19,628 bases of DNA. Origin: Thermostichus sp. DRC_bins_24. GTDB lineage: Bacteria; Cyanobacteriota; Cyanobacteriia; Thermostichales; Thermostichaceae. Below, in pieces: positions 3,628-19,628 of the stretch. The notes under the pieces were generated by a model. That model searched no databases and was not told the DNA's origin. It saw only the letters and a list, made by a program, of their open reading frames with translations. The stretch's first letter is position 1. Every line of letters starts with the position of its first letter. The position numbers were made by a program, and so were the translations under genes. The stretch covers positions 1 through 19,628 of the forward strand of contig JAUQVK010000075.1 in NCBI GenBank assembly GCA_039794845.1, read 5' to 3'.

Positions 3628-3687
3628 CCGGCGGGTCTGAAGAACCGATGCAAACAGACAGGAGAAGATGGGGAGCAGCAGAAGGAC

Positions 3688-4020
3688 GTGTTGAGCAACA
3701 ACGACGATAGCCAGATTTCATCTTCCTTAACCCAGGCCGCTTGGCGGGTTGCCTTGGTGAGTTTCGCCTCAATTCTGTTGGCAGAAATGGGGGACAAAAC
3801 CCAACTGGCCACCCTCCTCCTCAGTGCCCGCTCCCAAAACCCTGCGGTGATCTTTTTCGGGGCCGCTGCCGCCCTGGTTAGCACCAGTTTGATCGGGGTG
3901 TGGGCGGGAGCCTGGGTGGCGAGAATCTTTCCTCCCCGTTGGATCAAAACCCTGGCAGGACTGGGGTTTGTCTTGATTGGCCTTACCCTACTGTGGGGAT
4001 CCCTGCCGACGGCCAGTTAG
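3688..4020 (+). CDS. Half-size TMEM165/GDT1 (UPF0016) transporter subunit, partner of the upstream gene
   Basis: AEMGDKTQLATLLLSA motif and three TM helices. The GTG start is uncertain. Same frame as the upstream gene. Confidence 0.88.
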   Translation: MLSNNDDSQISSSLTQAAWRVALVSFASILLAEMGDKTQLATLLLSARSQNPAVIFFGAAAALVSTSLIGVWAGAWVARIFPPRWIKTLAGLGFVLIGLTLLWGSLPTAS

Positions 4021-4048
4021 GTGGTTTCAGAAAAGCTCAAGCAAGCCA

Positions 4049-4057
4049 TGCTAGCAT
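4049..4057 (+). promoter_or_regulatory. Putative extended -10 promoter element (TGcTAGCAT) for the small basic ORF
   Basis: TGn-TAnnnT match in the intergenic region, about 75 nt upstream of ATG 4131. Confidence 0.4.
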
Positions 4058-4130
4058 TGGAAACGCTTGATTTTCACACCCCGCCGGGGCTCTTTCACTT
4101 TATACCGGACAGCCGGTTAGGAACACCAGC

Positions 4131-4277
4131 ATGGCCAAAAAACGCAACCTAAAGCGAGAAAAAGCTGAGCGAAACCGCGAATACGCCAGACAGTTTCAAA
4201 AGAGCCGTGCTCGCAATGGTCGCCGCTTCCGTTCTACCCCCCGTGATAACGATGCCACTGCTGGTGAAGAGCAATAA
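4131..4277 (+). CDS. 48-aa highly basic small protein (MAKKRNLKREKAERNREYARQFQKSRARNGRRFRSTPRDNDATAGEEQ), missed by the ORF track
   Basis: ATG 4131 to TAA 4275-4277, followed by a second stop TAG. An AGGA SD-like sequence lies about 8 nt upstream, and the ORF fills an otherwise empty gap. The N-terminus resembles, from memory, a conserved cyanobacterial small protein (MAKRRNxKKEKAxRN). Confidence 0.75.
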   Translation: MAKKRNLKREKAERNREYARQFQKSRARNGRRFRSTPRDNDATAGEEQ

Positions 4278-4330
4278 TAGCTGGCCGGGATCCTTGATGG
4301 ATGCGCTGAACAGGGCTAGCTCAACAAACC

Positions 4331-4339
4331 TGCTATGGT
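4331..4339 (+). promoter_or_regulatory. Putative extended -10 element (TGcTATGGT) upstream of pyrH
   Basis: TGn-TAnnnT about 30 nt before ATG 4368. It overlaps the ORF-track ATG 4335, which favours the downstream start. Confidence 0.35.
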
Positions 4340-4367
4340 ATGCAGGGGTGGGCTGGAGCGGGTGAGC

Positions 4368-5126
4368 ATGAGATACCGACGGATTCTGTTAAAGCTGAGT
4401 GGCGAAGCCCTGATGGGGGAGCGTTCCTATGGGATCGACCCCGAAATTCTGCAGTCCATTGCCAGTGAAGTGGCTTCCGTGGTGCGAGCCGATGTACAAG
4501 TGGCAATTGTGGTGGGGGGCGGTAACATTTGGCGGGGGCGCAAAGAAGCCGCTGCCCAAGGCATGGATCAGGCCTCTGCCGACTATGTGGGGATGTTGGC
4601 CACTGTCATCAATGCCCTCACCCTGCAGGATGCCATCGAACGAGCCGGGATCCCAACTCGGGTGCAAACCGCCATTGCCATGCAGGAGGTGGCAGAACCC
4701 TACATTCGTCGCCGCGCCATTCGTCACCTGGAAAAGGGGCGGGTGGTGATTTTTGGCGCAGGTTCTGGCAATCCGTTCTTTACCACTGACACCACCGCCG
4801 CGCTGCGCGCCGCCGAGATCGATGCGGAAGTGATTTTCAAAGCTACCAAGGTAGACGGGGTTTACGATGCCGATCCCAAAACCCATCCTCAAGCCCGCCG
4901 CTACGATGCCCTCAGTTATCAAGATGTGCTCACCCACGATTTGCGGGTGATGGACAGTACTGCCATCGCCCTGTGCAAAGAAAATCAACTGCCCATCGTG
5001 GTCTTTGATCTCACAACCCCTGGAAACATCTACCGGGTGGTCAAAGGGGAGCCCATCGGCACTTGGATCGGGCAACGGGCTGCCGAAAGCAACGGGATCC
5101 CTGCCGGCTTGGCTCAGGGGAATTGA
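4368..5126 (+). CDS. pyrH: UMP kinase
   Basis: [65 protein letters not shown] and VMDSTAI. Confidence 0.97.
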
Positions 5127-5271
5127 AGTGGATCCCAAATGAAATGGGGTCAAGGCTAAAATGAGGCCGGCCTCAGGTTCCTGTTAGCAGCACCCGGGAT
5201 TGTCCCTGGCCAGTGTTCGGCTCTGGGGATAACTTGGCTAGTGGGCATGCTTAGGCTATTCGGAGAGGAAA

Positions 5272-6402
5272 GTGATGACGGAAGATCATGTCCAGCATCC
5301 AGCCCAAAGGGATCCCAGCTTATCCAAGCGCTCTAGCGGCCATCGCTGGGGCCGGCGCCTTGTGCAAAGCCTAGTATTCTTGCTAGCTCTTGCAGTTGGG
5401 TTTGGTTACTGGCAGTGGCAGACTTGGCTACAGCCAGTTGGGGAGTCAGAACCCATCCAGGTGGTGATTGAGCCGGGGAGCAGCAGCCGCTTGATCGGGC
5501 AGAAACTCTACCAAGCGGGGGTGATCCGCTCCGACTTGGCCTGGAGACTGTGGAGCCGCACCTTTGGGCGTGATTGGGTGTTCCAGGCAGGCACCTACGC
5601 GCTGGATCCCGGTCAAGACATGGTGGCGGTGGCCCAACAGCTGCGACAGGGCAACGTCTTGCAGACACGGCTGACAATTCCAGAAGGTTGGCGCATCAAG
5701 CAGATGGCAGCGGCTTTGGCCGAGCGAAACTGGTTGGAGGCCGACGCCTTTATTGCCACGGCCCAGGTGATTCCACCCCTTGATTGGCTACCCGCCAACT
5801 TAAACTCTCTGGAGGGGTACCTGTTCCCAGATACCTATTTTTTCCCTGTCGAAAAAGTAGAGGGATCCCTGCCAGATCATGAAAAAGCCCAAACGGTGGT
5901 GAATGCCATGCTGCAGCGGTTCGTCTCAGTGGCTTTGCCCCTGTTTCGGCAACATTCCACCTCCTTATCCCTCCACGAGTGGGTCACCTTGGCCAGCATT
6001 GTCGAGCGGGAAGCCGTGGTGCCGGAAGAACGTGCCCTGATCGCGGGGGTATTTCTCAATCGACTTCGAAAAGGGATCCCGTTGGGGGCTGACCCGACCG
6101 TGGAGTATGCCCTCAACATCCGCCAGACCCCTGATCGCCGCCTTACCTTCGCCGAAGTGCGCACCCCTTCCCCCTACAACACTTACCTCAACCCGGGCTT
6201 ACCCCCTGGCCCGATCGCCAGTCCGGGTTTGGCCAGCCTAGAGGCCGTCTTGGAACCGGAAGAGACCGATTTCCTCTATTTCGTTGCCCGTTACGATGGC
6301 ACCCATGTGTTTAGTAAAACCCTAGCCGAGCATGAGGCTGCCCAGTTGCAGATCATCCAAGAGCGCCAAAATGCCGCAACTGGAGCCACCGTTAGCCCCT
6401 GA
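5272..6402 (+). CDS. mltG: Endolytic transglycosylase MltG (YceG family)
   Basis: N-terminal TM anchor, LTIPEG, LEGYLFPDTY, LASIVERE (catalytic Glu), VFLNRL, LGADPTVEY, SPYNTYLNPGLPPGPIASPG and LYFVA. Start is GTG 5272 or ATG 5275. Confidence 0.96.
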   Translation: MMTEDHVQHPAQRDPSLSKRSSGHRWGRRLVQSLVFLLALAVGFGYWQWQTWLQPVGESEPIQVVIEPGSSSRLIGQKLYQAGVIRSDLAWRLWSRTFGRDWVFQAGTYALDPGQDMVAVAQQLRQGNVLQTRLTIPEGWRIKQMAAALAERNWLEADAFIATAQVIPPLDWLPANLNSLEGYLFPDTYFFPVEKVEGSLPDHEKAQTVVNAMLQRFVSVALPLFRQHSTSLSLHEWVTLASIVEREAVVPEERALIAGVFLNRLRKGIPLGADPTVEYALNIRQTPDRRLTFAEVRTPSPYNTYLNPGLPPGPIASPGLASLEAVLEPEETDFLYFVARYDGTHVFSKTLAEHEAAQLQIIQERQNAATGATVSP

Positions 6403-6412
6403 GGCAGAGTAA

Positions 6413-6901
6413 ATGGTACACAAACCCTGGTTTAAGTTGCTGCAGCCGGATATTGTGGTCGCCGGTACCGTTTTGCGGCTACAACCGGAAAGCCTGCTGG
6501 AGTGGGGGGTGCGGGGCATCATCTTCGATGTTGACGATACGTTGGTGCCGATTCGGCAAGCGGTTGTGGATCCGGCGGTGGTGGCCTGGCTGGAAAAACT
6601 ACGCCCCCACTTTCAAATTTGGCTGGTTAGCAACAACATCAACCGCAACCGCATTCGACAGATCGGTGAAAGTTTGGCGCTGCCCCATATTCACCGCGCC
6701 GGCAAACCTTCCCGGCGAGCCTTGCGGCGGGCGGTGGCCGAGATGGGCTTGCCGGTGGAGGCCGTAGCCATGGTGGGGGATCGGCTGCTCACCGATATTC
6801 TGGCGGGCAATCGTCTGGGTTTGGTGACGGTGTTGGTCAACTCCCTGTTGGCAGGGGTGATGGAGGAGAAGCCCTCCGCCCTGCTGGATCCCCGTTTGTA
6901 G
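6413..6901 (+). CDS. yqeG: YqeG-family HAD IIIA phosphatase
   Basis: IFDVDDTLV (motif I), LVSNN, AGKP and MVGDRLLTDILAGNRLG. It starts 10 nt after mltG, so is probably co-transcribed. Confidence 0.92.
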   Translation: MVHKPWFKLLQPDIVVAGTVLRLQPESLLEWGVRGIIFDVDDTLVPIRQAVVDPAVVAWLEKLRPHFQIWLVSNNINRNRIRQIGESLALPHIHRAGKPSRRALRRAVAEMGLPVEAVAMVGDRLLTDILAGNRLGLVTVLVNSLLAGVMEEKPSALLDPRL

Positions 6902-6936
6902 CGGGGAACCCATCCGAGGGGCCGTACCCTTGTACC

Positions 6937-9243
6937 CTATGTTGCCGGGATCTGGTCCTGAGCGCCCACAGGCTCCGGGGGTTGCCACTTCAGCACCAAG
7001 GTGGAGAGCTGCGGCAGACAGAGATCCAGCGAGTAGGGCAGGTTGTGGTAGGCCCAGTCGTCCGTCCATTTGCCTCCCAAATTGCCCACCCCGCTGCCCC
7101 AAAACTCCACAGCGTCGCTATTGAGGACTTCCCGGTAAAAGCCGCGTGCCGGCACCCCAATGCGGTAGTTGGGCCAGACCACCGGCGTGAAGTTACAGAC
7201 CACCACCACCCACTCGTTGGGATCCTCCCCATAGCGAATAAAGGAGACAATGCCACGGTGGTCACTACAGTCGATCCAGCGGAACCCCTCCGGTCTGATG
7301 TCTTGGATGTAAAGAGCCGGTTCCGAGCGCAACAATCGGTTCAAACTGCCCACATAGTTGCGCAACTTGGCATGAGGTTCAAACTGCAGTAGATCCCAAT
7401 CCAGATCCGCCCAAACATTCCATTCGTTCCACTGACCAAACTCCATGCTCATGAACAGGGTTTTCTTGCCGGGGTGGGTGAACATATAGCCGTACAAAGC
7501 CCGCAAACTGGCAAATTTGTGCCACTGATCCCCGGGCATTTTGCCCAACATGTGGCTCTTGCCATGTACGACCTCATCATGGGAAAAGGCCAGCATGTAG
7601 TTTTCGCTAAAGGCGTACATGAGGCTGAAGGTCACCAAATTGGAATGGAACTGGCGAAACCAGGGATCCATATGGAAATAATCCAGCATGTCGTGCATCC
7701 AGCCCATGTTCCACTTTAGGTTGAAACCCAACCCCCCCACATGGGTGGGCCAGGTCACCATCGGCCAGGCAGTAGATTCTTCGGCAATAGAAAGGGCACC
7801 TGGATTGTATTTGAAAATAAGGGTATTCAATTGCCGGAAAAAGTCAATCGCCTCGATATGCTCCCGTCCGCCGTAGGGGTTGGGTAGCCATTCTTTGCGG
7901 TCGTAATCCAGATACAGCATCGAAGCCACCGCATCCACGCGGATCCCGTCGATGTGGTATTTCTCAAACCAAAAGAGGGCATTGGCCACCAGGTAATTGC
8001 GCACTTCATTGCGGCCATAGTTGAAGACCAACGTGCCCCAGCCCTTGTGTTCCCCTTTGCGAGAATCACCATACTCGTACAGATGGCTGCCGTCGAAAAA
8101 GGCCAGCCCATGCCCATCTTTGGGAAAATGGCCCGGTACCCAATCGACGATGACCCCAATCCCGGCTTGGTGGGCTTGATCCACAAAGTACATGAAGTCT
8201 TGCGGGGATCCATAGCGGGATGTGGCGGCATAATGGCCGATCACCTGATAGCCCCAGGATCCATCGAAGGGGTGCTCTGCCACCGGCAAAAGCTCGATGT
8301 GGGTAAAGCCCAGTTCCTTCACGTAGGGGATCAATTTATCCGCCAGCTCCCGATAGGTAAGGAAGCGGGTGTTGGGCTTCTGATCCACCGGTACACTCGG
8401 CCCCTGAGCGGGGGGATCCTCAGCCGAGCCATGCATCCAGGATCCCAAATGCACTTCGTAAACAGAAACCGGTGAGCGGAGGGGTTCGGTGGCGGCCCGC
8501 CGTTCCAGCCAGGCTTGGTCGCCCCAACTGTAGGTGTTCAAGTCCGTCACAATGGAGCCGGTTTTCGGACGCACCTCCTGCTGGAACCCATAGGGATCCG
8601 ACTTTTCGTAGATGTCGCCCCAGGGGGTTTTCACCTCGTACTTGTAGATCGCCCCCAAGGGCACACCGGGGATGAACAAAGCCCAGATGCCACTCTCCCC
8701 CAGCACCTTCATCTGGTGTTGGCGGCCATCCCAGTGGTTGAAATCGCCGATAACGCTGACATTGCGGGCGTTAGGGGCCCAAACGGCAAAGTGCACCCCC
8801 GCTACCCCTTCAACGGTGAGGGGATGAGCGCCCAGCTTGTCGTAGATGCGGTGGTGGTTGCCCTCGCCGAACAGGTAGCGATCCACCTCCCCCACATGAT
8901 CCACCTTCTCCGGTGGAAACCGATAGGGATCCTCCCACTCTTCCAGGCGTTGCCCATCGGGATCCCAGGTGCGCTGCGATCTCAAAAAATAATCCGGCAG
9001 GGGGGCGCCGGGGGCCAAGCGCAGTTCAAACAGGGTTTCCGGGTGCAGTGGCTGCATTGGATGGGCCTGGCCTGTGGCCCGTTCTACCACCCAAACCTGC
9101 CTGGCATTGGGCACAAGGGCACGAATCAGCCAATAGGACTCCCCGGCTTCTGCAATCTGCTGTGGCCCCAGAACGGCAAAGGGATCCTGCCACTGATTGG
9201 AGACAAACTGACCCACTTGTTCGGCAGACAAGAGAAATGCCAT
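6937..9243 (-). CDS. glgB: 1,4-alpha-glucan branching enzyme (GH13)
   Basis: FAVWAPNA, YEVHLGSW, ELLPVAEHPFDGSWGYQ, DWVPGHFP, DGIRVDAVASMLY, AEESTAWP, KWNMGWMHD and SHDEVVHGK. Confidence 0.98.
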   Translation of the reverse strand: MAFLLSAEQVGQFVSNQWQDPFAVLGPQQIAEAGESYWLIRALVPNARQVWVVERATGQAHPMQPLHPETLFELRLAPGAPLPDYFLRSQRTWDPDGQRLEEWEDPYRFPPEKVDHVGEVDRYLFGEGNHHRIYDKLGAHPLTVEGVAGVHFAVWAPNARNVSVIGDFNHWDGRQHQMKVLGESGIWALFIPGVPLGAIYKYEVKTPWGDIYEKSDPYGFQQEVRPKTGSIVTDLNTYSWGDQAWLERRAATEPLRSPVSVYEVHLGSWMHGSAEDPPAQGPSVPVDQKPNTRFLTYRELADKLIPYVKELGFTHIELLPVAEHPFDGSWGYQVIGHYAATSRYGSPQDFMYFVDQAHQAGIGVIVDWVPGHFPKDGHGLAFFDGSHLYEYGDSRKGEHKGWGTLVFNYGRNEVRNYLVANALFWFEKYHIDGIRVDAVASMLYLDYDRKEWLPNPYGGREHIEAIDFFRQLNTLIFKYNPGALSIAEESTAWPMVTWPTHVGGLGFNLKWNMGWMHDMLDYFHMDPWFRQFHSNLVTFSLMYAFSENYMLAFSHDEVVHGKSHMLGKMPGDQWHKFASLRALYGYMFTHPGKKTLFMSMEFGQWNEWNVWADLDWDLLQFEPHAKLRNYVGSLNRLLRSEPALYIQDIRPEGFRWIDCSDHRGIVSFIRYGEDPNEWVVVVCNFTPVVWPNYRIGVPARGFYREVLNSDAVEFWGSGVGNLGGKWTDDWAYHNLPYSLDLCLPQLSTLVLKWQPPEPVGAQDQIPAT

Positions 9244-9314
9244 CGGGAGCCCTCAACAGACAACTGATCTCGACTGATCCCAGTGTAACGGCGGCTGAGT
9301 TCCCCTTTGGCCGA

Positions 9315-10775
9315 TTAGCTCCAGGCCCGTCGCCAGGAGAAGAAGCCTTCTAAAAAGTTTTGCAGGCGGGTATTGGCGGCAAAGTTTTGTTTTTTGTGCT
9401 GCAGGGCGGCTTTGGCTGTCACCTCCGAGAGGGTGGGGTAAACGTGAATCCCTGTCAGGGCAGAGACGGGCAGTTTGTGGCTCATGGCCAAGACCACCTC
9501 ATGAATCAGTTCCCCCGCATGGGCTCCCACCAGGTGCGCCCCCAAAAGTTGCCCGTTGCGCCGGCAGATCAACTTGGCAAACCCCAGTGTGGCGGCTTCC
9601 GCCTGCGCCCGATCTACTTCCGCAAACTCGTGCTTGAGTACCATCACATCGTTGCCGTAGTGTTGCTTGGCTTCGCGTTCGGTGAGGCCAACCCGGGCCA
9701 ATTCCGGCTCGGTAAAAGTAGCCCAGGGAATGACCCGATAACTGGCTTTGCTCACGGGTAAAAACAGGGCATTCACCAGGGCCACCGCCGCTTCGTATCC
9801 CGCCACATGGGTAAATTGCGGCCCCCCGATCACGTCCCCACAGCCATAAATGCGCGGATTGCTGGTTTGCAGTTTGGCGTTCACCTGAATCCCTTGGGGG
9901 CCAACCTGCACGCCCGCGGCTTCCAACCCCAAGTCTTCCACGTTGGGCACCCGCCCTGCTGCCACCAAAATCGCTTCGACGCGCAGCACCTTGCTGCCGT
10001 TACCCGTGTTCCCGTCCACGTACAAAAGCTTTTCCCCCTGCTCTTGGCTGGCTGTCTGGGCTCGCACTTCTGTAAGAATGTGGATCCCTTCTTGGGCCAA
10101 CTGCTGCTGCACCACCTGGGCTGCTTCTGGGTCTTCTTTGGGCAAAATACGGTCGCGGCTGGCAATCAGGGTGACCTCGGATCCCAAGCGAGCTAGGGCT
10201 TGTCCCAACTCACAGCCAATCGGCCCCGCTCCGATCACCGCCACCGACTTTGGCAAGCGCGTCAGGTCAAATACCGATTCGTTGGTGAGGCAACCCACTT
10301 CTGCTAACCCCGGCAAGGGAGGAATCCGGGGACGGGATCCCGTCGCCACCACAAAAGCCCGTGCCCGTACCCGCCGCCCTTCCACCTCAAAGGTGTGTTC
10401 ATCCACAAAGCGGCCTTTGCCAAAGACGATCTCCACCCCCAGTCGGCGAAAGCGCTCCGGCGAGTCGGCGTGGTTGGCAATGAACTCCTGAGCGGAGCGA
10501 ATGTGCTGGTACACCTTGAGATAGTCCACCTGGATCCCCGCCCCATGGATGGCAGAGACCAAGCCAGAAGCCGTAGCCTGGCGAATGTGATGGACAGTAC
10601 GGGCCACGTGAATAAGGGATTTGCTCGGCACACAGCCATACCAAAGGCAGTCTCCACCGATGCGGTCGCTTCCTTCCACCAGCAGAACCTTGGCCTTCAG
10701 TTGCGCGGCGGCGCTGGCGACCACAAGGCCTGCTGAACCGGCGCCAATGACGACAACATCATAGGGAACGGTCAT
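9315..10775 (-). CDS. Class I pyridine nucleotide-disulfide oxidoreductase (LpdA/MerA-like flavoprotein)
   Basis: GAGSAG FAD motif, redox disulfide GGDCLWYGCVPSK, ATGS, GAGPIG NAD(P) motif, GDV and HVYPTLSE. Start is ATG at 10775 (MTVPYDVVVIG). No NmerA domain and no C-terminal Cys-Cys pair. Confidence 0.92.
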   Translation of the reverse strand: MTVPYDVVVIGAGSAGLVVASAAAQLKAKVLLVEGSDRIGGDCLWYGCVPSKSLIHVARTVHHIRQATASGLVSAIHGAGIQVDYLKVYQHIRSAQEFIANHADSPERFRRLGVEIVFGKGRFVDEHTFEVEGRRVRARAFVVATGSRPRIPPLPGLAEVGCLTNESVFDLTRLPKSVAVIGAGPIGCELGQALARLGSEVTLIASRDRILPKEDPEAAQVVQQQLAQEGIHILTEVRAQTASQEQGEKLLYVDGNTGNGSKVLRVEAILVAAGRVPNVEDLGLEAAGVQVGPQGIQVNAKLQTSNPRIYGCGDVIGGPQFTHVAGYEAAVALVNALFLPVSKASYRVIPWATFTEPELARVGLTEREAKQHYGNDVMVLKHEFAEVDRAQAEAATLGFAKLICRRNGQLLGAHLVGAHAGELIHEVVLAMSHKLPVSALTGIHVYPTLSEVTAKAALQHKKQNFAANTRLQNFLEGFFSWRRAWS

Positions 10776-10800
10776 GGCTCTTTCCGAGGTAGGGTGAATC

Positions 10801-10824
10801 GAGCAATCAAAAGAGCAATCAAAA
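10801..10824. repeat. Perfect 12-bp tandem direct repeat (GAGCAATCAAAA)x2 in the divergent oxidoreductase/tatA intergenic region
   Basis: Read directly at 10801-10812 and 10813-10824. Confidence 0.85.
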
Positions 10825-11016
10825 TCAGACTCCCCAGAGGGATAGGACAATCCTACCGATCTCATCCTGAATGGGTTGTGGGTGAGATAGAGATATATGA
10901 AGTTCCTGAGAAGGCGTAGGCCAAAGGATCCCTTTCTGAATCGGAGAAGAACTTGCTAGAGTGAGACAAGCTGGCAGTTACCAACTTTTTTTCTGTTTCT
11001 TGGGTTTCGGGGATCT

Positions 11017-11268
11017 ATGACTATTCTGCTACCGAGCGAACCTATCCTGGCCGTAAGCATTTTCGGCATGGGCCTGCCGGAACTGGCAGTGATTGGGGTA
11101 ATCGCAGTGGTCGTGTTTGGTCCCAAGAAGCTACCGGAGTTGGGCAGCGCCGTCGGCAAAGCGTTGCGGGGCTTCAAGCAAGAGATGAACAATCCCAGCG
11201 GTGATGAAGAATCTGCCCCTGCTAAGGCCGAAAACACCGAAAAAGTGGTGGAGAAGGACGTCGCCTGA
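11017..11268 (+). CDS. tatA: Twin-arginine translocase TatA/TatE-family subunit
   Basis: FGMGLPELAVIGVIAVVVFGPKKLPELGSAVGKALRGFKQE (TM helix, FGP hinge, amphipathic helix) followed by an acidic tail. A TGcTAGAGT -10-like element lies at 10954-10962. The start codon is uncertain. Confidence 0.92.
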   Translation: MTILLPSEPILAVSIFGMGLPELAVIGVIAVVVFGPKKLPELGSAVGKALRGFKQEMNNPSGDEESAPAKAENTEKVVEKDVA

Positions 11269-11413
11269 ACCAAGGCTTCCTGAAGATGGGCAATCAATCG
11301 GCATCGGGTCGGCTTCCAGCCAAACAAACTCTAAGGGTAGTGTATATTTTGTAGGGATCTCTGCTTCTAACGCTAATGGCAGGGCTTAGTCGACTTGGGC
11401 CAAACGGAGTCTT

Positions 11414-12250
11414 ATGGCTGAGCTGACCGATTCCGAGCTGATGCGCCAGATCCAGTCGCGGGATCGGCGTGGCCATTTCCTGCTGAAGGATCGCTATCAA
11501 AAGCGCCTGCTGGAGATTGCCTTGGCCACCCTTAAAAAACCCCACCAAGCGGAAGAGGTGGTGCGCCAGGTCTTTGAGTTTTGCTGGAAACGGGCAGATA
11601 CATTCGATATCGAACGGGATCGCTCGGTGGCCCTGTGGCTCTACGAATTGACCGCCTTTCAAGCCAGAGAGCGGTTGCGGCGCTGGGCTTGGTTGCCGGC
11701 TCCCACCTCGATTCAAACGACGGTTTCGGTTTGGCCGCGACGCATCCTGCTGGGCCTCCTGGGGGTTCTGGGGGTTTACGCGACGGCCATGACGCTGGAG
11801 TACTGGCGGCTACGCTGGCGGTGGGGATCCCTGCTCCAAAGTGAATCCGTGGCGATTCAGCGGCTGTATCAGGACTGGCAACGACAACCCGATATCCAAA
11901 GGGCAACCCTACGGGATCCCAACTTTGGCAACCCAACGTTGGTGCAGGCCCTCTGGTCGCCGCGCGCCAAACAGGTGCTGTTGCTGGCCTCAGACATGGC
12001 CCCCGCTCCGCAGGGAAGCACCTATCAACTGTGGTTGCAGTCGGAACTGGAGGGAGGGGTACAGATGGTCGAAAATGCCGGCACATTCGCGGTGAACGGC
12101 GAGGGATCCCTGCAATGGCTGAGTCGGCCCACTCTTTCTCCCCAACCCTCTCGCCTAACCATCACCCTCGAACCCGCCGGGGGCAGTGAATCCCCCACCG
12201 GATCCCCCCTCTTGCAAAGCAGCTTTTTGATCCCGGCAGCTCAGCCGTGA
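11414..12250 (+). CDS. Chimeric membrane protein: ECF sigma region-2-like N-domain, TM helix, and RskA-type anti-sigma C-terminal domain
   Basis: Residues 1-90 (TDSELMRQI...LKDRY...IALATL...AEEVVRQVFEFCWKRADTFD...SVALWLYEL...ARERLRR) follow the SigK-like sigma2 pattern. Residues 111-131 are hydrophobic. The C-terminus has RskA motifs LWSP, PAPQGSTYQLWL, AGTF and LTITLEPAGGSESPTG. Confidence 0.8.
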   Translation: MAELTDSELMRQIQSRDRRGHFLLKDRYQKRLLEIALATLKKPHQAEEVVRQVFEFCWKRADTFDIERDRSVALWLYELTAFQARERLRRWAWLPAPTSIQTTVSVWPRRILLGLLGVLGVYATAMTLEYWRLRWRWGSLLQSESVAIQRLYQDWQRQPDIQRATLRDPNFGNPTLVQALWSPRAKQVLLLASDMAPAPQGSTYQLWLQSELEGGVQMVENAGTFAVNGEGSLQWLSRPTLSPQPSRLTITLEPAGGSESPTGSPLLQSSFLIPAAQP

Positions 12251-12274
12251 GGGAGCAAATATCCAGCGACCCCC

Positions 12275-12745
12275 TTAAGAAGCTCGCGCCACCCCCGACC
12301 GCCGCTTCCCACGGGATCCCCGTAGACGCACCTTGAGGCGGTAGCGGACGGTCTCGTGCACCACCTTGTAAGAAGCATCCACCCCGTGGTTTTCCCGCAA
12401 CCAGTCACGGATGTCGCTGTAGGTGCGAAATCGACCGGGCTGGTGTAGCTCCTGCTTAAGGGTTTCCAAAATCGGCTTGGGAATGAGGGGTTTGCGCCCT
12501 TGATTGCGAGGCACCGTCAACATGCCATCCAGCCCTGTGGTCTTGTATCGTTGAAACCACCGAAAGATCGTTGAGATATCCCGGCCCAGAATTTCAGCCA
12601 AGCCCGTAATGGTTTTGACTTTTCCAATTTTGAGAAGATAAAGAGCTTGAACCCGCTCTTTGCCCGTAGGAGTAGATTGCCTGCCGAGTAGCAATTTTAG
12701 CTCCTCGGCTGATTCCCGAATATCGAGCTTGAGAACTCCAGCCAT
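12275..12745 (-). CDS. Stand-alone HTH DNA-binding protein related to the IS630-family transposase N-terminal (OrfA) part
   Basis: MAGVLKLDIRESAEEL...KERVQALYLLK...LAEILGRDISTIFRWFQRYKTTGLDGML...GRKP...YSDIRDWL...SYKVVHETVRYRLK resembles cyanobacterial IS630 OrfA. It is 156 aa from ATG 12745. No DDE ORF follows; the convergent gene ends 24 nt after its stop. Confidence 0.8.
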   Translation of the reverse strand: MAGVLKLDIRESAEELKLLLGRQSTPTGKERVQALYLLKIGKVKTITGLAEILGRDISTIFRWFQRYKTTGLDGMLTVPRNQGRKPLIPKPILETLKQELHQPGRFRTYSDIRDWLRENHGVDASYKVVHETVRYRLKVRLRGSRGKRRSGVARAS

Positions 12746-13267
12746 GTTGGGATGCCGTAGGATCAACTGTGAACTCAAAATCTGGCAGGGAAAGCCGCAA
12801 AGACTTCACCTTCAGAAGAAAATCGGCTAAAGCCTGACCAAACTTAACCAAGGTAAGTAGGCGAGATCCCTAGCCAGAAAGCACCCCCAGCAGCCGAACG
12901 CGTCAGAGAAAATCTGCCTACGCACGGAGTGGGGTTGAACCCGCCACTTGGCTGTGAGTGTAGCACGGATACTTTAGTTTCTGGAAGCTGCCTCTGAAGT
13001 TTTTGTGGTCATTGCTTGACCTTTACAGAATCTGGATCTGAAAAAGCCACTGAACAAAGCTGCATCTACTTCAGGTCTTCATCTTTCATGCAGTCATTAC
13101 AGCCCCTCTGCCAGTCACCTACAACAACTCCGTTGAGACCTACCTCCCGAATCCCTGCCGTAGAGAACCCGCGCAAGGGCTGTACCGGTGGGTTGGCTGG
13201 AGGGATCCCCTCCTTCGCGGCGGGTTGCGGCTATAGGATTGGGGGGCAAGCTTGCCGGTGGCGCACC

Positions 13268-14167
13268 ATGATCCATAGACATTCGTCTTGGGAGGGGTTT
13301 CGTTGGTTTCGGTTGGCCCTACAGCTCCAGGGCTCTGTGGTGCCGGCCGTGCTTACCCGCACTTTGGTTTGCGGGTTGTTCGGGGTGCTGGTCTCGATTC
13401 TCTACGAGTTGGGGTTACCCCTGGCGCTTTCGGCGTTGGTGGCGTTCGTGCCGAATATCGTTTTGGGGTTGATGTTGGTGTTTCGCACAAACACGGCCTA
13501 CGAGCGATTCTGGGAAGGGCGTAAAGCCTGGGGATCCCTGGTAAATGATGTGCGAAATTTAGCTCGGCTGATTTGGGTGGCGATTGAAGAACAGCAGTCC
13601 GGCGACCGGGAAGAGAAAATCAAAACTCTGTACCTGTTGCCCGCTTTCGCGGTGGCCATGAAGCAGCACTTGCGCCAAGAGCGCCTCCTTGACGAGATCC
13701 AGCCCTTAGTCAGCCCCCAACAGTTGCAACGCCTAAAAGATCTCAATCACCCCCCCCTGCAAATCGCCTTCTGGATAGGCGATTACCTGCAGCAGCAATA
13801 CGAGACAGGCCGGGTTGAGGTGTATCAGCTAACGATCATGGTGGAGCGGCTCAACAGCATGGTGGATGCCTTGGGGGCTTGCGAGCGCATTTTGATGACC
13901 CCAATGCCCCTGGCTTATGCTCTCCACTTGAAGCAATTGTTGTTGCTCTATTGCTTGTCTTTGCCGTTCCAGATGGTGCAAGGATTGGGCTGGATGACCG
14001 GGCCTATCGTGGGGTTGTTGAGCTTTATGTTGTTTGGCATTGAAGAGATTGGCATCGAAATTGAGAATCCCTTTGGCCGGGATCCCAATGATTTGCCGCT
14101 CGATGGTATTTGCAACAAAATGCGCCACAACATCGCGGATTTGATTCATTCAACGCGAGGAAGCTGA
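13268..14167 (+). CDS. Bestrophin-family (YneE-like) anion channel
   Basis: LGLMLVFRTNTAYERFWEGRKAWG, CERILMTPMPLAY and GIEEIGIEIENPFGRDPNDLPLD. ATG 13268 gives about 299 aa, typical for the family. Confidence 0.93.
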   Translation: MIHRHSSWEGFRWFRLALQLQGSVVPAVLTRTLVCGLFGVLVSILYELGLPLALSALVAFVPNIVLGLMLVFRTNTAYERFWEGRKAWGSLVNDVRNLARLIWVAIEEQQSGDREEKIKTLYLLPAFAVAMKQHLRQERLLDEIQPLVSPQQLQRLKDLNHPPLQIAFWIGDYLQQQYETGRVEVYQLTIMVERLNSMVDALGACERILMTPMPLAYALHLKQLLLLYCLSLPFQMVQGLGWMTGPIVGLLSFMLFGIEEIGIEIENPFGRDPNDLPLDGICNKMRHNIADLIHSTRGS

Positions 14168-14185
14168 TCCTCAGGGCCTTAAGCC

Positions 14186-14368
14186 AGGGTTACAGCCCTT
14201 GTGCGGGTCTTCTACAGCAAGTTTTGCACTTCCTGTTCCTGATACGCGGGGTGCGGAGCACCATCCGGCTGGAAGAGGAAGTCTCGGCTTCCACGGTTCT
14301 AGGTGACCGGCGTTGCCCTATGGTGGGTGAACGCACTCGCGTGTCCTGGGCGTAAAGGGCTGTGAAGC
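14186..14368 (-). ncRNA. ssrS: Probable 6S RNA (SsrS/SsaA); ends approximate
   Basis: About 180 nt that fold into a rod on the minus strand. Closing stem ACAGCCCUU/AAGGGCUGU (14355-14363 with 14192-14200), inner stem GCGAGU/ACUUGC, a large central bubble, then GGGC..CGCCG/UGGUGCUC and apical UGGAAG/CUUCCA. G:U pairs in the inner stems favour the minus strand. GGGCAACGCC, CUAGAAC and UAUCAGGAAC resemble recalled cyanobacterial 6S motifs. Confidence 0.7.
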
Positions 14369-14459
14369 GGCAGTGTCTACCGGTAGTGGTAATCCTCAGG
14401 GCCTAGTCGCAAATTTGCCGAAAGGGATCCCCATATCTGGGTGGCAGTGGGATTCCGTC

Positions 14460-14468
14460 TGCTAAACT
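14460..14468 (+). promoter_or_regulatory. Putative extended -10 element (TGcTAAACT) for the sbcD-sbcC-nurA operon
   Basis: TGn-TAnnnT about 30 nt before ATG 14498. Confidence 0.4.
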
Positions 14469-14497
14469 GTGGACAATTTGCCTGGCATCTCTGGGTT

Positions 14498-15778
14498 ATG
14501 GCCCGTTCAACCTGCACGTTTCTGCATCTGGCCGATGTGCATCTGGGCTACGACCGGTATGACAGCCCGGAGCGCAGCAAAGATTTCTTTTTGGCCTTTC
14601 GGGACGTGGTGCGGCGGTACGCCATTCAGAAGCCCGTGGATTTTGTCCTCATTGCGGGGGATCTGTTTGAGCACCGACAAATTCAACCGGGGGTACTCAA
14701 CCAAGCCCAGATCGTCCTGCGGGAACTGAAACAGGCGGGGATCCCGGTTTTGGCCATTGAGGGCAACCACGACAATCGTCCCTATGGGGTGAAAACCAGT
14801 TGGCTGCGGTACTTGGCGGATCACGGGGAGTTGATTTTGCTCGAACCCGGCGAAGGAGATCAAGGACTGGAGTTACACCCTTGGTCAGGCCAACGGGGAG
14901 CTTATCTGGATTTGCCCTGTGGGGTGCGGGTGATCGGATCCCAGTGGTACGGGTCGGCAGCCCCCAAATCCATTGAGCAGTTGTCGACAGCGATTCGGCA
15001 GTTGCCCCCCGGCCCAGAGCGAGTGATCCTGCTGTTCCATCACGGCCTAGAAGGCCAAATTGCCCGTTATCAGGGGGCTTTGCGCTACAGTGAGTTGCTG
15101 CCCCTGAAGGAAGCCGGGGTGGGCTACCTGGCATTGGGCCATATTCACAAAAGCTATTGCGAAGGGGGTTGGGTTTTCAATCCCGGATCCCTGGAGGCCA
15201 ACAGCACGGCAGAGTGGGATTTTCAGCGGGGTGCCTACCGGGTGGAGTGGGGAAATGGCGAACCGCAAGCCGAGTTGGTGCAGGATTACTATCAGCGACC
15301 CTGTCAGCGGTTACGTCTTGAGGCCAAAGGCAGAGAAACCCCCGAACAAATTGTGGCCGCAGCGATTGCCTTGGCAAAAGGAGCCCGACCTCAAGAAAAC
15401 GGGCCAGGAAACCGGGTAGAACCCATTGTGGAGTTTCGTCTGGTGGGACAAGTGGGTTTTGCCAAACACGAACTGGATAGTCGCACCCTTCAACGACAGA
15501 TTCAGCAAATTACGGGTGCTTTGATTGTCTTGTTCCGCTTCGAGGCCACACCCTTAGAGATCGGATCTGCTTCGGTGGCTTGGGAAGAAGCGGGCCAACG
15601 GCTACAAATCGAAGAACAAATCTATACGGATCTGTTGAGCAGTCATGCTCACTATCGCAAGCGCAGTGGGGAGCTGGCTCGTTTGCTGCTGGATCTCAAG
15701 GAGAGGGTTCTGGATGGGCAAGGGGAATCAGAGGTGTATGCTCATCTGGCTGAAACATTTTTAGGGGAGGAAGACTGA
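14498..15778 (+). CDS. sbcD: SbcD/Mre11-family metallophosphoesterase DNA repair nuclease
   Basis: LHLADVHLG, LIAGDLFE, IEGNHD, LFHHG, LALGHIH and NPGSLE. Start is ATG 14498. Confidence 0.94.
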   Translation: MARSTCTFLHLADVHLGYDRYDSPERSKDFFLAFRDVVRRYAIQKPVDFVLIAGDLFEHRQIQPGVLNQAQIVLRELKQAGIPVLAIEGNHDNRPYGVKTSWLRYLADHGELILLEPGEGDQGLELHPWSGQRGAYLDLPCGVRVIGSQWYGSAAPKSIEQLSTAIRQLPPGPERVILLFHHGLEGQIARYQGALRYSELLPLKEAGVGYLALGHIHKSYCEGGWVFNPGSLEANSTAEWDFQRGAYRVEWGNGEPQAELVQDYYQRPCQRLRLEAKGRETPEQIVAAAIALAKGARPQENGPGNRVEPIVEFRLVGQVGFAKHELDSRTLQRQIQQITGALIVLFRFEATPLEIGSASVAWEEAGQRLQIEEQIYTDLLSSHAHYRKRSGELARLLLDLKERVLDGQGESEVYAHLAETFLGEED

Positions 15779-15780
15779 GT

Positions 15781-18700
15781 ATGCGAATTCTTTCCCTAGC
15801 TCTGCAAAATTTTAAGTCTCATGTCGATCATATTTTTGAATTTGAGCCGGGTACCAACGCCATTTGTGGGGAAAATGGGGCCGGGAAAACCAGTATCCTG
15901 GAAGCCATTGCCTGGGCTTTGTTTGATCACTGTCCTTACAGCCAGGAGGAAATTATCCGCTCAGGAGCCAGTGATGCAGTGGTCACGGTGCAGTTCATCT
16001 CCCAATGGGATCAGCGCACCTATGACGTTCGCCGCAGTGTTACTCAAGGGTATCGCCTGTTCGACCCCCAACTGAAGCAGCGCCTGGACTATGAGCGAAA
16101 GGTGGATGTACTGCCCTGGTTAAGACAACATCTGGGCGTACCTGTGGGTACCGATCTGGCTCGGCTGTTTGCCACAACCATCGGGGTGCCCCAAGGAACC
16201 TTCACGGCAGACTTTCTCAAAACGGGTCGGGATCGTAAAGAAGTCTTTGACCGTATCTTGAGGGTAGAGGAATACCAAACGGTGGCTAAGGACTTGCTGG
16301 CAGTAGAAAGATTTAGTGAAGCGAAAGTTCAAGCCATCAAACATCAAATTGAACTCTTTAATCAACAGCTACAGGGCTGGGATCCGCTACAGGCAGAATG
16401 CATTCAGGTTGAGCAAGAATTAACCCATTGGCAAGAGCAGATCAGACAACATACCCATACTCTTGGGCAGGTGAAAACTCAAATTGAGAGCTTGGAAAAT
16501 CTATCTCGGCAAATCCAGGGTCTTGAACAACAAATTACCCAACTGCAACAGCAGGGATCCCTGCTGGAAATGAGTGTAGAACAAGCTCAAAAGTTACTGG
16601 AGGAAGCCCAACAAGCGCAACTCCAACAGCAGCAATATCAAGAGGGATCCCAGCTTTTCTTGGCGGCAGAAGCCCAACTGCGAGAATTGGAAAAACAGCA
16701 ACAGCAGCGGCTAGAGTTGCTCAAAAAACGAGATGCTTTGCTCTTGCAACGGCAGGAGGTTGAAACAGAATTAGCAAGACTTCAGGAGAAGCTCAACCAA
16801 CTGCAACGCTGGAAACAAGAGCTAGAAGATCTGGCTCCCAAAATTCAAGCTCAGCAAAAACTTGAACATCAGCAGATCCAATGGACTCAACAGCTCAACA
16901 CTTGGCAGCAACTGCAAAATGAACTGAAACACCTGCAGGCAGAATGGGCAACCCAGTCGCAGCGATGTCAACTTTTACAAAACCGAGTGGAAGAAGCAGA
17001 ACAGGCGCAGGCCGTGTGTCAACAGCATCAACCTGCCCACGATCGTTATCTGGAATTGGAAACGCTGATCGCAGAGCAGGAAAGGCTGCGACGAACGCGG
17101 CAAACCCTAACCGGCCAGCGGGAAACGTTGCTGAATCAATATCATCAACTACAACTTCGAGAGGCAGAATATAAGCAGCGACTGTATGCCTTTCAACAAA
17201 TTGAGCAGGAAATACTTAGCCTACAGCCTCTCTGCGAAAAACAGGGATCCCTAGAGCAGCACTATTCCCAACTCACCCAAAAATTGGCTCCCTTCCAAGC
17301 CCTTCGCCTCGAGCTCAAACAAAGAGAGACCGAGCAAGAACAAGGTCGGCAACAATTACATCAGCTAGAAGTAGCTCTTAAACAAAGACAAGCCAATTTA
17401 GAGCAAGTAGCTAAGATCCCAGCCTTGGAATCTCAACAAGAACGCCTGCAAACCCAGCTTAGCCGTATTGCTGCTGCTCGACAGTTTCAACAAGAACTAG
17501 AAACGATTTTTGAGCAAGGCTCCAATCAACTCGCTCTGCAAAATCAAAGCATCCAACAGCTTTTGGATGAAATCAAGATACTGCAACAAGACAATCCCCA
17601 GTTAAAATCCCTGTGGCAGCGGATCCCTTTAACCTTAACCCAATCTTCGGCGTTGAGTCAGCAATTGCTCCAATCCATTCAACGTATTTTACAGGATCTA
17701 GCTCCACAAACTTCGGAACCTCAACTTCGCTGGCAGCTAGCCGATCTGCGAAAACAACTGAAGACTTTACAACCTTTACTGGGTTTGACGACGCAGATCC
17801 CAGAATTAGAGACACAGATTCAGCAACTGTACCAATTACAAGCAGAACTACAAAGCAGAATTGACGATCTCAATTGGAGTCTTGAGGCGGAGCCAACCTA
17901 TCTTCGACAACAACGGGAACTGAGCGAGGAATTACAAGCTTTAGGAGATCCAAGAGGGCAGATACAACGCCTAGAGAAAGACCTCGAAGATCGGGCCAAA
18001 ACGGAGCAAGAATGGCAACAAATAGTGAAACACCTCCATCAGCTTCATCAAGGTCTTCAGGATTTGGAGCAGCAGCTTCAGCCTCTCTCGGATCTGGATG
18101 ATAAAATTGCATCCCTCAGGGAAGAGCAGAAAACTCATCGCAACAGCTATGAAACCGTGATTGGCTCACAAGTTACTGCCCAAGGTCTGAGCCGAAGGCA
18201 GAAAGATCTCCAGGCCGCCCAATGGGATCTCGAGAGAATACAACAATCCGTCGAAGAGAAGCAAGCCCATATCAGCCAATGGGAAAAGGCACACGGGACA
18301 AAAGAGCAGTTGCAAACCCAGCTAGAACAGGCCGACGGAACTTTGAAGTCTTTGGGGGATCCCAGAAGCCAAGCTGAACGACTGAGGACTGAGCTGAAAG
18401 CTGAATCTCAGTATCTGCAACTGCAAGCACATTATTTAGGGCAACGTCAGCACCTTGAGGCAGAACTCAGCCAGATTCAAGAAGCTTTATCTCAGACCGA
18501 TCACCTGGAAAGAGATCTGGGATCCCTACAACAACGACGAGATCAACATCGCCTTGCCCATGAGCGTTATCTTCAGGCAGAACCTATTGCAAAACTGCTG
18601 CCCCAACGAGAACAAGAGCTGGCAAAGTTGAACACTCAACAACAGGAGCTGCAAACTCAACTGTCCCAGCTTCGGGCGGCATGGGATCCCTTAGCCTCTC

Positions 18701-19374
18701 AATACCAACCTCAAGAACACGAACGCCTTAAAACCTTGTTACAAACCACCGAAATTCAAAAAACTGAGGCTCAAACACGTCTAGAAAGCCTTGCTCCTCA
18801 GCTGCTCAGAATTCAGGAAAAGTTGCAGCAACTAGAGCAGATTAAAGAAAATCTAAAGCAAGCTGAGGCAGAGCGAGTTGAAAGAGAAAGATTACATCGC
18901 TTTATCAAGTTTAGTCGAGAGGTTTACAAAAAAGCAGGTCCACAAATCACCCAACATTATCTTCAACAAATTAACCAAACAGCAGACCAGTTGTTTCGCG
19001 AAATCCTCAACAGGCCTGATGTCACCCTCACTTGGGAACCCGACTACGAAATCCGCATTCAAGAAGCGGGCAGCTCCAAACGACGCTTTGCTAGCCTTTC
19101 CGGTGGGGAACAAATGTCGGCGGCTCTGGCGGTACGATTGGCCCTGCTAAAGGTATTGGGACAGTTGGATATTGCCTTTTTTGATGAACCCACCACCAAC
19201 ATGGATGCACAACGGCGGCAACGGCTGGCGGAAGCCATTACCAATCTACGCTCTTTCCAGCAGTTGTTTGTGATCAGTCATGATGATACCTTCGAACGAG
19301 TCACCGAAAATATTATTCGAGTAGAAAGACGCTCCGAGCAAACGCAAAGGAGGGATCCCGCCTATGGTGCTTAG
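15781..19374 (+). CDS. sbcC: SbcC/Rad50-family SMC-like ATPase
   Basis: LQNFKSH, Walker A GENGAGKTS, Q-loop VPQG, a long Gln/Glu-rich coiled coil, signature LSGGEQ, Walker B/D-loop FFDEPTTNMD and H-loop VISHD. It starts 2 nt after the sbcD stop. Confidence 0.95.
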   Translation: MRILSLALQNFKSHVDHIFEFEPGTNAICGENGAGKTSILEAIAWALFDHCPYSQEEIIRSGASDAVVTVQFISQWDQRTYDVRRSVTQGYRLFDPQLKQRLDYERKVDVLPWLRQHLGVPVGTDLARLFATTIGVPQGTFTADFLKTGRDRKEVFDRILRVEEYQTVAKDLLAVERFSEAKVQAIKHQIELFNQQLQGWDPLQAECIQVEQELTHWQEQIRQHTHTLGQVKTQIESLENLSRQIQGLEQQITQLQQQGSLLEMSVEQAQKLLEEAQQAQLQQQQYQEGSQLFLAAEAQLRELEKQQQQRLELLKKRDALLLQRQEVETELARLQEKLNQLQRWKQELEDLAPKIQAQQKLEHQQIQWTQQLNTWQQLQNELKHLQAEWATQSQRCQLLQNRVEEAEQAQAVCQQHQPAHDRYLELETLIAEQERLRRTRQTLTGQRETLLNQYHQLQLREAEYKQRLYAFQQIEQEILSLQPLCEKQGSLEQHYSQLTQKLAPFQALRLELKQRETEQEQGRQQLHQLEVALKQRQANLEQVAKIPALESQQERLQTQLSRIAAARQFQQELETIFEQGSNQLALQNQSIQQLLDEIKILQQDNPQLKSLWQRIPLTLTQSSALSQQLLQSIQRILQDLAPQTSEPQLRWQLADLRKQLKTLQPLLGLTTQIPELETQIQQLYQLQAELQSRIDDLNWSLEAEPTYLRQQRELSEELQALGDPRGQIQRLEKDLEDRAKTEQEWQQIVKHLHQLHQGLQDLEQQLQPLSDLDDKIASLREEQKTHRNSYETVIGSQVTAQGLSRRQKDLQAAQWDLERIQQSVEEKQAHISQWEKAHGTKEQLQTQLEQADGTLKSLGDPRSQAERLRTELKAESQYLQLQAHYLGQRQHLEAELSQIQEALSQTDHLERDLGSLQQRRDQHRLAHERYLQAEPIAKLLPQREQELAKLNTQQQELQTQLSQLRAAWDPLASQYQPQEHERLKTLLQTTEIQKTEAQTRLESLAPQLLRIQEKLQQLEQIKENLKQAEAERVERERLHRFIKFSREVYKKAGPQITQHYLQQINQTADQLFREILNRPDVTLTWEPDYEIRIQEAGSSKRRFASLSGGEQMSAALAVRLALLKVLGQLDIAFFDEPTTNMDAQRRQRLAEAITNLRSFQQLFVISHDDTFERVTENIIRVERRSEQTQRRDPAYGA

Positions 19375-19628
19375 AACCGATCGGATCCTGACGGTATTGG
19401 ATCAAAAACGTGAGGCCTTTACCACCTTTGACCAGAGGTTATCAGAGCGGAGAGAGTGGTATAGGCAAGCAATGGAGCAGTTGTGTAAGTGGTCAAGTTT
19501 AGAAATTGCCGAAAAAATAGCCCCCTTTGCTTTTCCAGGAGCTTTGCCTACGGCTGAATGGGATACTTATCGCAATTGGAAATTGCCTTTTCACCACGAA
19601 TGGACTAACTATGAAGAAAGCTGTGAAT
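19364..19628 (+). CDS. nurA: 5' part of an ORF coupled to sbcC, probably NurA-family nuclease (truncated by the window end)
   Basis: ATG 19364 has a strong SD AAGGAGG (19347-19353) and overlaps the sbcC stop. The frame is open to the window end: MVLRTDRILTVLDQKREAFTTFDQRL...PGALPTAEW...WTNYEESCE. It resembles recalled N-termini of cyanobacterial NurA proteins. The catalytic DGS motif would lie beyond the window. Confidence 0.6.
   Translation, partial: MVLRTDRILTVLDQKREAFTTFDQRLSERREWYRQAMEQLCKWSSLEIAEKIAPFAFPGALPTAEWDTYRNWKLPFHHEWTNYEESCE

Follow-up and report, generated by a model that had tools for sequence, protein, structure and literature searches.

A sigma region 2-like domain on an RskA-type membrane chassis, lacking sigma region 4, in the Thermostichus family of cyanobacteria

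The gene described here lies on a 19,628-nucleotide stretch of DNA from Thermostichus sp. DRC_bins_24 (NCBI GenBank assembly GCA_039794845.1, contig JAUQVK010000075.1, positions 1 to 19,628 of the forward strand), a whole contig (C75) that is referred to below as the window. The open reading frame (ORF) at 11414..12250 (+) and the protein that it encodes are both labelled X. X is a bitopic membrane protein in which an extracytoplasmic function (ECF)-type sigma region 2 (sigma2) in the cytoplasm is joined through one transmembrane (TM) helix to an external beta-sandwich of the RskA type. The gene is present in one copy and is passed on vertically within a single deep family of cyanobacteria, that of Thermostichus and its relatives, and purifying selection acts strongly on both halves of the protein. 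ECF sigma/anti-sigma pairs rank with the most common signalling modules of bacteria. The known variants of the module comprise soluble anti-sigmas, C-terminal extensions, complete sigma/anti-sigma hybrids and PhyR mimicry. None of them accommodates a conserved sigma2 standing alone on an anti-sigma chassis. It is tentatively proposed, as a possibility that falls short of the probable, that X is a sigma/anti-sigma hybrid without sigma region 4 (sigma4), in which the tethered sigma2 acts as a protein-binding mimic and not as a working sigma.

The ORF starts with ATG, contains no internal stop and encodes 278 amino acids (aa) followed by the stop codon. The frame opens only 8 codons 5′ of the ATG (a 286-aa frame), and thus there is no hidden N-terminal domain. 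Residues are numbered as in X, with which RpoE numbering coincides across the sigma2.2 positions. The cytoplasmic sigma2-like domain occupies aa 1-92 (11414..11689, +), with helices at residues 6-14, 18-40, 43-59 and 72-92. Its aa 26-91 match Pfam Sigma70_r2 (E 8.1e-7; 29.2 bits against a cut-off of 24), and the best NCBIfam match of the sigma part is the SigK-type model PRK09646 (E 1.7e-8, aa 6-89). At the other end, aa 146-263 (11849..12202, +) match Pfam RskA_C (E 6.4e-14; 52.8 bits against a cut-off of 29.4). These two domains were the only ones found in Pfam; Sigma70_r4, Sigma70_r4_2, zf-HC2 and RskA_N remained unmatched at E<=10. The NCBIfam anti-sigma model of 217 positions aligns through its positions 78-217 with aa 104-265 (E 1.8e-16). 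Its first 77 positions are unmatched in X, which identifies the N-terminal anti-sigma domain of the model as the part that has been replaced.

Structural comparisons agree with the assignment of the N-terminal domain. A profile of the X family retrieved ECF sigma2 structures from the PDB, including 5or5 (1.1e-5), SigW 5wuq (4.7e-5), SigK 4nqw (6.4e-3) and also AlgU. An AlphaFold model of aa 1-104, built from 44 sequences including ECFs, reached a predicted local distance difference test (pLDDT) score of 82. In Foldseek it superposed on region 2 of sigmaE over about 90 residues, with a TM-score of 0.75-0.86 and a root-mean-square deviation of 1.2-1.5 Å. This fold is partly built into the model because the alignment contained ECFs; the sequence evidence is independent of it. 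In the full-length model, derived from 13 sequences, the N-domain has a pLDDT of about 50, and Foldseek returned no matches for it at E<=0.001.

The end of sigma2 (about aa 92) is separated from the TM helix by some 18 residues, which is too short for a sigma4 or for an anti-sigma helix. This linker (aa 93-110; 11690..11743, +) is modelled at low pLDDT and carries a conserved RRWxW...P motif; in the family alignment, W91 and W93 are nearly invariant and P95 is invariant. The single TM helix, I111-W131 (11744..11806, +), is seen in the sequence as a hydrophobic stretch and falls within a long modelled helix spanning residues 107-157, with L119, Y122 and T127 invariant in the family. The ectodomain is modelled as a beta-sandwich with a pLDDT of 82-91. 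No solved structure matched it at the sequence level. The model resembles Cu,Zn superoxide dismutases (SODs) with Z of 8.0-8.7, the top 14 rows all being SOD or SOD-chaperone chains. There is no His or Cys in aa 133-278, and hence the resemblance to SOD is one of fold only. The topology of X is predicted to be N-in/C-out from its homology to RskA and from the S-layer-homology (SLH) domains of a family member, P0023. This 516-aa protein bears the SLH domains at its C-terminus, as fits a periplasmic location.

Much of this anatomy had been proposed in a sequence-only reading of the window, made by a model that saw the letters and a list of ORFs. The intact 278-aa ORF, its sigma2-like N-domain, the TM helix and the RskA-type C-terminus with the TYQLWL and ITLEPAGGSESPTG motifs were all recovered, as were the AEEVVRQVF string and the three GGGATCCC sites inside the ORF. 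The absence of sigma4 and of a cytoplasmic anti-sigma domain, also noted there, agrees with the Pfam result. So does the absence of an adjacent sigma gene: X is alone on its contig in carrying a sigma domain, none having been found elsewhere in the window.

Relatives of X with both Pfam domains occur in Thermostichus and in 'Synechococcus' hot-spring isolates and metagenome-assembled genomes (MAGs) at 75-87% identity, and in remoter cyanobacterial MAGs at 43-49%. The gene is single-copy in 21 of the 30 genomes of the order, the window's own included, and none of the copies has stops. Within its family it is present in 20/22 other genomes and in 8/8 genera; in the sister family it is present in 0/7, and in an even sample of the phylum it was found in 2/401 genomes, both of its own genus. 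When the family profile was run against 1.84 billion cluster representatives, 9 clusters fell below E 1e-30, with a gap in E from 1e-44 to 1e-13. Two genomes of the same genus (G423 and G424; 2.2-2.4 Mb, 99% complete) lack the gene, and their tatA loci (L075, L074) are clean and without a remnant.

Selection was estimated as the ratio of nonsynonymous to synonymous substitution rates (dN/dS) by the Nei-Gojobori method for 15 pairs from 6 orthologs. The ratios, which are rough for the several pairs with dS >1, amount to 0.09-0.18 overall, with 0.040-0.110 for the sigma2 part, 0.149-0.503 for the linker and TM helix and 0.079-0.208 for the ectodomain. The least saturated pair gave 0.078, 0.149 and 0.116 for the same three parts. 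The family alignment likewise reveals sigma2 as the best conserved part of the protein. Between genera, the N-domain of X is 54-73% identical, as compared to 52-64% for the sigma2 of a resident ECF sigma encoded on contig C6; the corresponding values are 36-42% for the ectodomain of X and 29-38% for the RskA_C of the C6 anti-sigma. The N-domain is thus conserved at least as well as a working sigma2 of the same clade. The long residence of X suggested by the sequence-only reading is upheld by its presence in every genus of the family and by ratios far below 1. The findings that it had listed as fatal to its case, namely no similarity to sigma2, a fusion unique to one assembly and a dN/dS near 1, were each looked for and none was seen.

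The residues of sigma2 were compared in an alignment of 16 X-family members with 28 ECF-type sequences. At position 51 the X family has R in 12/16, whereas the ECFs have Q in 23/28. Position 52 is Q in 15/16 and acidic in 0/16 of the family, as against D/E in 27/28 ECFs, and position 55 is E in 10/16, where 19/28 ECFs have L/V. In region 2.4, R at position 81 is kept by 4/16 family members (21/28 ECFs), and position 82 is F in 11/16, in place of the N/S/H of 21/28 ECFs. The hydrophobic core and W58/W75 are common to both groups, and the L3 loop of the X family has a one-residue insertion relative to the ECFs. The consensus residues of ECFs for core binding (Q-E/D in 2.2) and for the -10 element (R and N/S/H in 2.4) are therefore mostly not kept. 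The diverged sigma2.2 motif that the sequence-only reading had remarked upon is thus a conserved and family-specific trait.

Positions 51 and 52 of X match Q406 and E407 of sigma70, which we take to be classical core-binding positions. The functional roles given here to residues of regions 2.2 and 2.4 are partly general background and partly drawn from two papers. According to PMC7406223, helix 4 of class I anti-sigmas is predicted to contact sigma2.2 at positions 51, 54, 55 and 58 (RpoE numbering), which in general also bind beta′. A passage on EcfP in PMC8999054 states that beta′ binding requires negatively charged sigma2.2 residues. A sigma2.2 face that changed and has since been held constant suggests that the domain acquired a different but specific partner. 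Taken together, the lack of sigma4, the altered region 2.4 and the re-specified, frozen sigma2.2 face make a protein-binding mimic the likeliest role of the tethered sigma2.

Under this proposal, X would no longer be a sigma factor, since the -35 element should be unreadable without sigma4 and region 2.4 lacks the usual R and N/S/H. The sigma2.2 helix, which in real ECFs is bound by the beta′ clamp helices and by helix 4 of class I anti-sigmas, would have acquired a new specificity (R51/Q52/E55) and then remained fixed. The tethered sigma2 may bind an amphipathic helix resembling helix 4, most plausibly that of one of the four anti-sigmas resident in the genome. Such binding could tune the release of the sigma held by that anti-sigma, which would make X a one-protein, membrane-bound version of PhyR-type mimicry. 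The periplasmic RskA_C could set the stability or availability of X.

The genome holds four ECF sigma genes, each with its own anti-sigma gene directly downstream. The anti-sigmas on contigs C6 and C61 are of the RskA_C type, that on C18 is a short anti-sigma and that on C25 is HC2-like. As all four ECFs are already paired with an adjacent anti-sigma, X is an extra, orphan player, the fifth. The closest relatives of its two halves within the genome belong to the same pair, namely the ECF sigma on C6 (29-31% identity) and its anti-sigma (about 30-31%). A scan of the genome with PF08281 (Sigma70_r4_2) yielded no plausible sigma4-only gene; outside the full sigmas, it matched an 87-aa LuxR-type frame (C79), longer frames at weak scores and a 72-aa frame in a plasmid-like region. 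The C61-type pair was not found in G423 and G424 when searched with C6 queries. In another genus, the ortholog of the C6 ECF sigma gene at L055 (G412:C67:15484-16113) is reported with one in-frame TGA.

The upstream neighbour of X is tatA (11017..11268, +), which encodes 83 aa and matches Pfam TatA_B_E (E 1.7e-18). It lies immediately 5′ of X on the same strand in 9/10 related loci, and the remaining flanks vary (ispG, glgB and others). The exception, L038, is a 3.9-kb contig with a masked stretch upstream. In the spacer between the two genes, a GTGTATA(T/G)T box at 11340..11348 (+), 66 nt 5′ of the ATG of X, contains a -10-like TATAnT. It is kept in 6/6 aligned Thermostichus-type spacers, which otherwise differ in length and show little conservation. 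The box escaped the consensus promoter scan, no terminator-like site was called between tatA and X, and Rfam gave no matches near X. The box is likely a -10 element; X probably has its own promoter, possibly supplemented by read-through from tatA. No sigma gene appeared near X in the ORF lists of the 10 related loci, in which Pfam was not run on the neighbours. The tatA loci of G423 and G424 retain glgB and tatA, and have neither X nor the ORF found downstream of it.

This downstream ORF (12275-12778, -) encodes 167 aa and lies tail-to-tail with X, 24 nt from its stop. It matches only the helix-turn-helix (HTH) families HTH_23/HTH_32 and is similar to the N-terminal part of IS630 transposases. 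It is single-copy in the genome and adjoins X in 9 other genomes of 3 genera, being broken in 2/9. It is absent from 10 X-bearing genomes, and stops or breaks are present in two genomes and in the related locus L031. It looks like an old transposase fragment, slowly decaying or domesticated.

Several observations weigh against the proposal of a protein-binding mimic. The acidic sigma2.2 motif is partly kept in the X family (A46 in 14/16, E47 in 11/16 and E48 in 12/16), and there is almost no variation in the L3 loop and the aromatics that flank it (F64, D65, D69, S71, V72, A73, W75, L76 and Y77). In sigmaE, the L3 loop holds a flipped base of the -10 element. The retained AEE and the near-invariant loop would be compatible with a domain in which binding to RNA polymerase or DNA persists. 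A decoy would not obviously need such conservation if its target were a fast-evolving anti-sigma domain, that of the C6 anti-sigma being 35-56% identical between genera. X lacks even the remnant of helix 4 that other sigma2-only fusions keep, and its sole firmly conserved neighbour, tatA, is neither a sigma nor an anti-sigma gene. Phyletic profiling of the two RskA-type pairs (C6 and C61) revealed no partner for X: the C6 pair occurs without X in G423, G424 and some genomes of the sister family, and the C61-type anti-sigma was not found in several X-bearing genomes.

The main rival to the mimic, though judged unlikely, is a tethered half-sigma that still binds the core enzyme. Envelope stress would lead to site-1/site-2 proteolysis, and the freed sigma2 of about 100 aa would compete for core or act as a specificity subunit for the -10 element only. 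A -10-only specificity subunit exists in T4 gp55. The retained AEE motif and the invariant L3 loop and aromatics speak for this explanation, as does the conservation of the N-domain, which equals that of a working sigma2 and suits a partner that evolves slowly, for instance beta′. Homologues of site-2 proteases are also encoded in the genome (5 Peptidase_M50 matches at 4 loci), and the relevant parts of PMC8999054 and PMC5411451 describe the activation of a one-polypeptide hybrid, IutY, by Prc/RseP proteolysis. The 20 sigma2-only proteins of other lineages, several of which are close kin, have an acidic position 52 in 18/20 and Q at position 51 in 8/20; the complete ECF-TM-RskA_C fusions have Q at position 51 in 11/11. 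The X family itself argues the other way: position 52 is never acidic, R mostly replaces Q at position 51, R81 and N82 of region 2.4 are lost, and there is no sigma4 and hence no reading of the -35 element.

Three lesser rivals cast X as a new type of anti-sigma, as a Tat-linked protein or as part of a split sigma. X might hold a resident sigma at the membrane through its sigma2-like domain, for example by way of the sigma4 of that sigma, the domain then taking the place of the lost anti-sigma domain. This is quite unlikely. The TM helix and ectodomain are of the RskA-type anti-sigma kind, and public annotation pipelines name X 'anti-sigma factor (domain-containing protein)', but these names stem from the RskA_C match alone and each of the four ECFs already adjoins an anti-sigma. 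We also know of no precedent for the tight binding of a foreign sigma4 by a sigma2, which counts further against it. It is very unlikely that X, co-expressed with TatA, senses or binds that protein through its cytoplasmic domain or TM helix, the amphipathic helix of TatA replacing anti-sigma helix 4, and so reports on Tat or envelope status. The position of tatA directly 5′ of X amid otherwise differing flanking genes, the lack of a called terminator-like site and the identity of TatA among the related loci (64-86%), which is compatible with the strongly conserved N-domain of X, all favour such a role. However, the conserved box suggests that X has a promoter of its own, X was cleanly lost from G423 and G424, where tatA persists, tatA also occurs without X in the sister family, and synteny inside one family can be inherited without selection. 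The case for X as the sigma2 half of a split sigma, complemented by a sigma4-type DNA-binding protein from another gene, as in SigO-RsoA, is poorer again. Two-polypeptide ECF sigmas do exist, as the part of PMC7826278 on SigO-RsoA indicates, and a single-copy HTH-only ORF, syntenic in three genera, lies next to X. The split sigma raised by the sequence-only reading nevertheless found no support in the genome scan for sigma4-only genes. X is anchored in the membrane, and the HTH ORF is transposase-like; as an obligate stand-in for sigma4 it was rejected, since 10 X-bearing genomes do not have it and others carry it in broken form. That X arose as a recent lesion or through misassembly, or is a functionless remnant in decay, has next to no probability. 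This explanation is refuted by intact copies without stops across the order and by dN/dS far below 1; the same architecture in independent assemblies and metagenomes and the host-typical density of GGGATCCC also speak against it.

The joining of sigma2 to RskA_C is not confined to the Thermostichus family. Pfam was run on 25 further proteins from the X-family profile search. Sigma70_r2 with RskA_C and without sigma4 was found in 13/25, complete ECF-TM-RskA_C fusions made up 8/25, RskA_C alone was seen in 3/25, and the remaining 1/25 (P0092, 434 aa) combines TIR with RskA_C. A protein Atlas cluster of 60 members, commonest in Pseudomonadota, has Sigma70_r2 and RskA_C in all of them. The recurrence of the architecture and the tight linkage to tatA were both missed by the sequence-only reading. 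Public databases already list the domain pair under automatically assigned names, for example 'anti-sigma factor domain-containing protein'. Relatives of the P0033 family, which share 41-61% identity, bear JGI names such as 'anti-sigma-K factor RskA/sigma-70-like protein'.

The P0033 family is informative as to how such proteins may arise. Its sigma2 shares 57-58% identity with free-standing ECFs of 185 aa, and the C-terminal two thirds of the protein share 63-65% with free-standing anti-sigmas of 261-264 aa. At the junction, a helix LPEGLKEK(I/V) is kept, and sigma4 and anti-sigma helices 1-3 are gone. The retained helix is read as anti-sigma helix 4, and the origin of this lineage can be traced to an in-frame loss of sigma4 and helices 1-3. 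X itself probably descends from an ECF sigma/RskA anti-sigma module minus sigma4 and the anti-sigma domain. The in-frame deletion put forward in the sequence-only reading is thus plausible, and can be followed directly in the unrelated P0033 lineage; for the X family it is not settled. The sigma2 of X is 37-40% identical to that of one-polypeptide ECF-TM-RskA_C fusions, which hold its closest sigma2 sequences, versus 29-31% to the resident two-gene pair. Given this roughly equal similarity (29-40%) to two-gene pairs and fusions, X may equally well have lost sigma4 after a fusion had formed.

As a broader and rather doubtful conjecture, the sigma4-less hybrids may form an unrecognised recurrent class of membrane-tethered sigma2 mimics, created by repeated in-frame deletions of sigma4 and helices 1-3. 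Each would be a one-protein partner-switch, using PhyR logic without phosphorylation, that couples a periplasmic RskA_C sensor to ECF release. The Thermostichus family would be the most derived case, with helix 4 gone and the sigma2.2 face re-specified.

Among known systems, the RskA-type class I anti-sigmas (partners of the SigK/ECF18-19 type) share with X a single TM helix followed by RskA_C with a TLEPxGGSxxPTG motif. Two canonical examples are encoded in the same genome beside their sigma genes. X differs from them in having sigma2 in place of the RskA_N/zf-HC2 domain (helices 1-4) and no adjacent sigma gene, and it differs from ECF (group 4) sigmas in having sigma2 but not sigma4. In the general stress response of alphaproteobacteria, PhyR carries a sigma-derived domain that has no role in transcription and binds an anti-sigma. 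The logic proposed for X would be the same, that of sigma mimicry, but PhyR is soluble and has sigma2- and sigma4-like halves and a receiver domain, whereas X is membrane-bound, with sigma2 only and a periplasmic domain. The PhyR partner switch is named in a figure legend of PMC8999054. RsoA, as presented in part of PMC7826278, likewise has a sigma2-type domain without sigma4; it is small and soluble, and its gene lies next to that of its sigma4-bearing partner, whereas X is a membrane protein for which such a partner was not found.

IutY of Pseudomonas putida, ECF48/52/53 and the ECF-TM-RskA_C fusions also unite a sigma domain with a TM helix and a periplasmic anti-sigma-type domain on a single polypeptide; the fusions include the uncharacterised P0019-21, P0040, P0051, P0062 and P0097. 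The IutY-type hybrids have a complete sigma (sigma2 and sigma4), which is active upon release, whereas X has no sigma4 and altered residues in 2.2 and 2.4. The same domain pair in the same order as in X is seen in the P0033 family and in 12 further cluster representatives, each conserved in its own lineage. The P0033 family is separate from X, lying beyond the gap in profile E, and it keeps helix 4 (LPEGLKEKIM), which X does not; most of the other sigma2 + RskA_C proteins keep the acidic position 52, which X does not. No characterised example of these sigma4-less proteins was found in the literature. A search for papers on sigma2 + RskA_C proteins or on sigma4-less hybrids found none, subscription journals and supplements lying outside its coverage. 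X thus stands outside the ECF sigmas, the RskA anti-sigmas and the IutY-type hybrids, and at most might work like a PhyR-type mimic.

The recurrence of the domain pair in unrelated lineages and the strong selection on X suggest that it probably does something general. If sigma2 were a decoy for anti-sigmas or a conditional binder of RNA polymerase, it would represent a new regulatory layer and would supply synthetic sigma circuits with a compact, orthogonal component. For cyanobacteria, X marks a lineage-specific, tatA-linked envelope-signalling gene of the deep-branching hot-spring Thermostichus group. If X were only a degenerate relative of anti-sigmas with a structural role, the interest would be modest.

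A minor feature of the locus concerns the palindrome GGGATCCC, presumably the highly iterated palindrome of the host. It occurs within the ORF of X at 11824, 11913 and 12103, and the whole window holds 29 copies (about 1.5 per kb), compared with 0.65 expected from shuffles.

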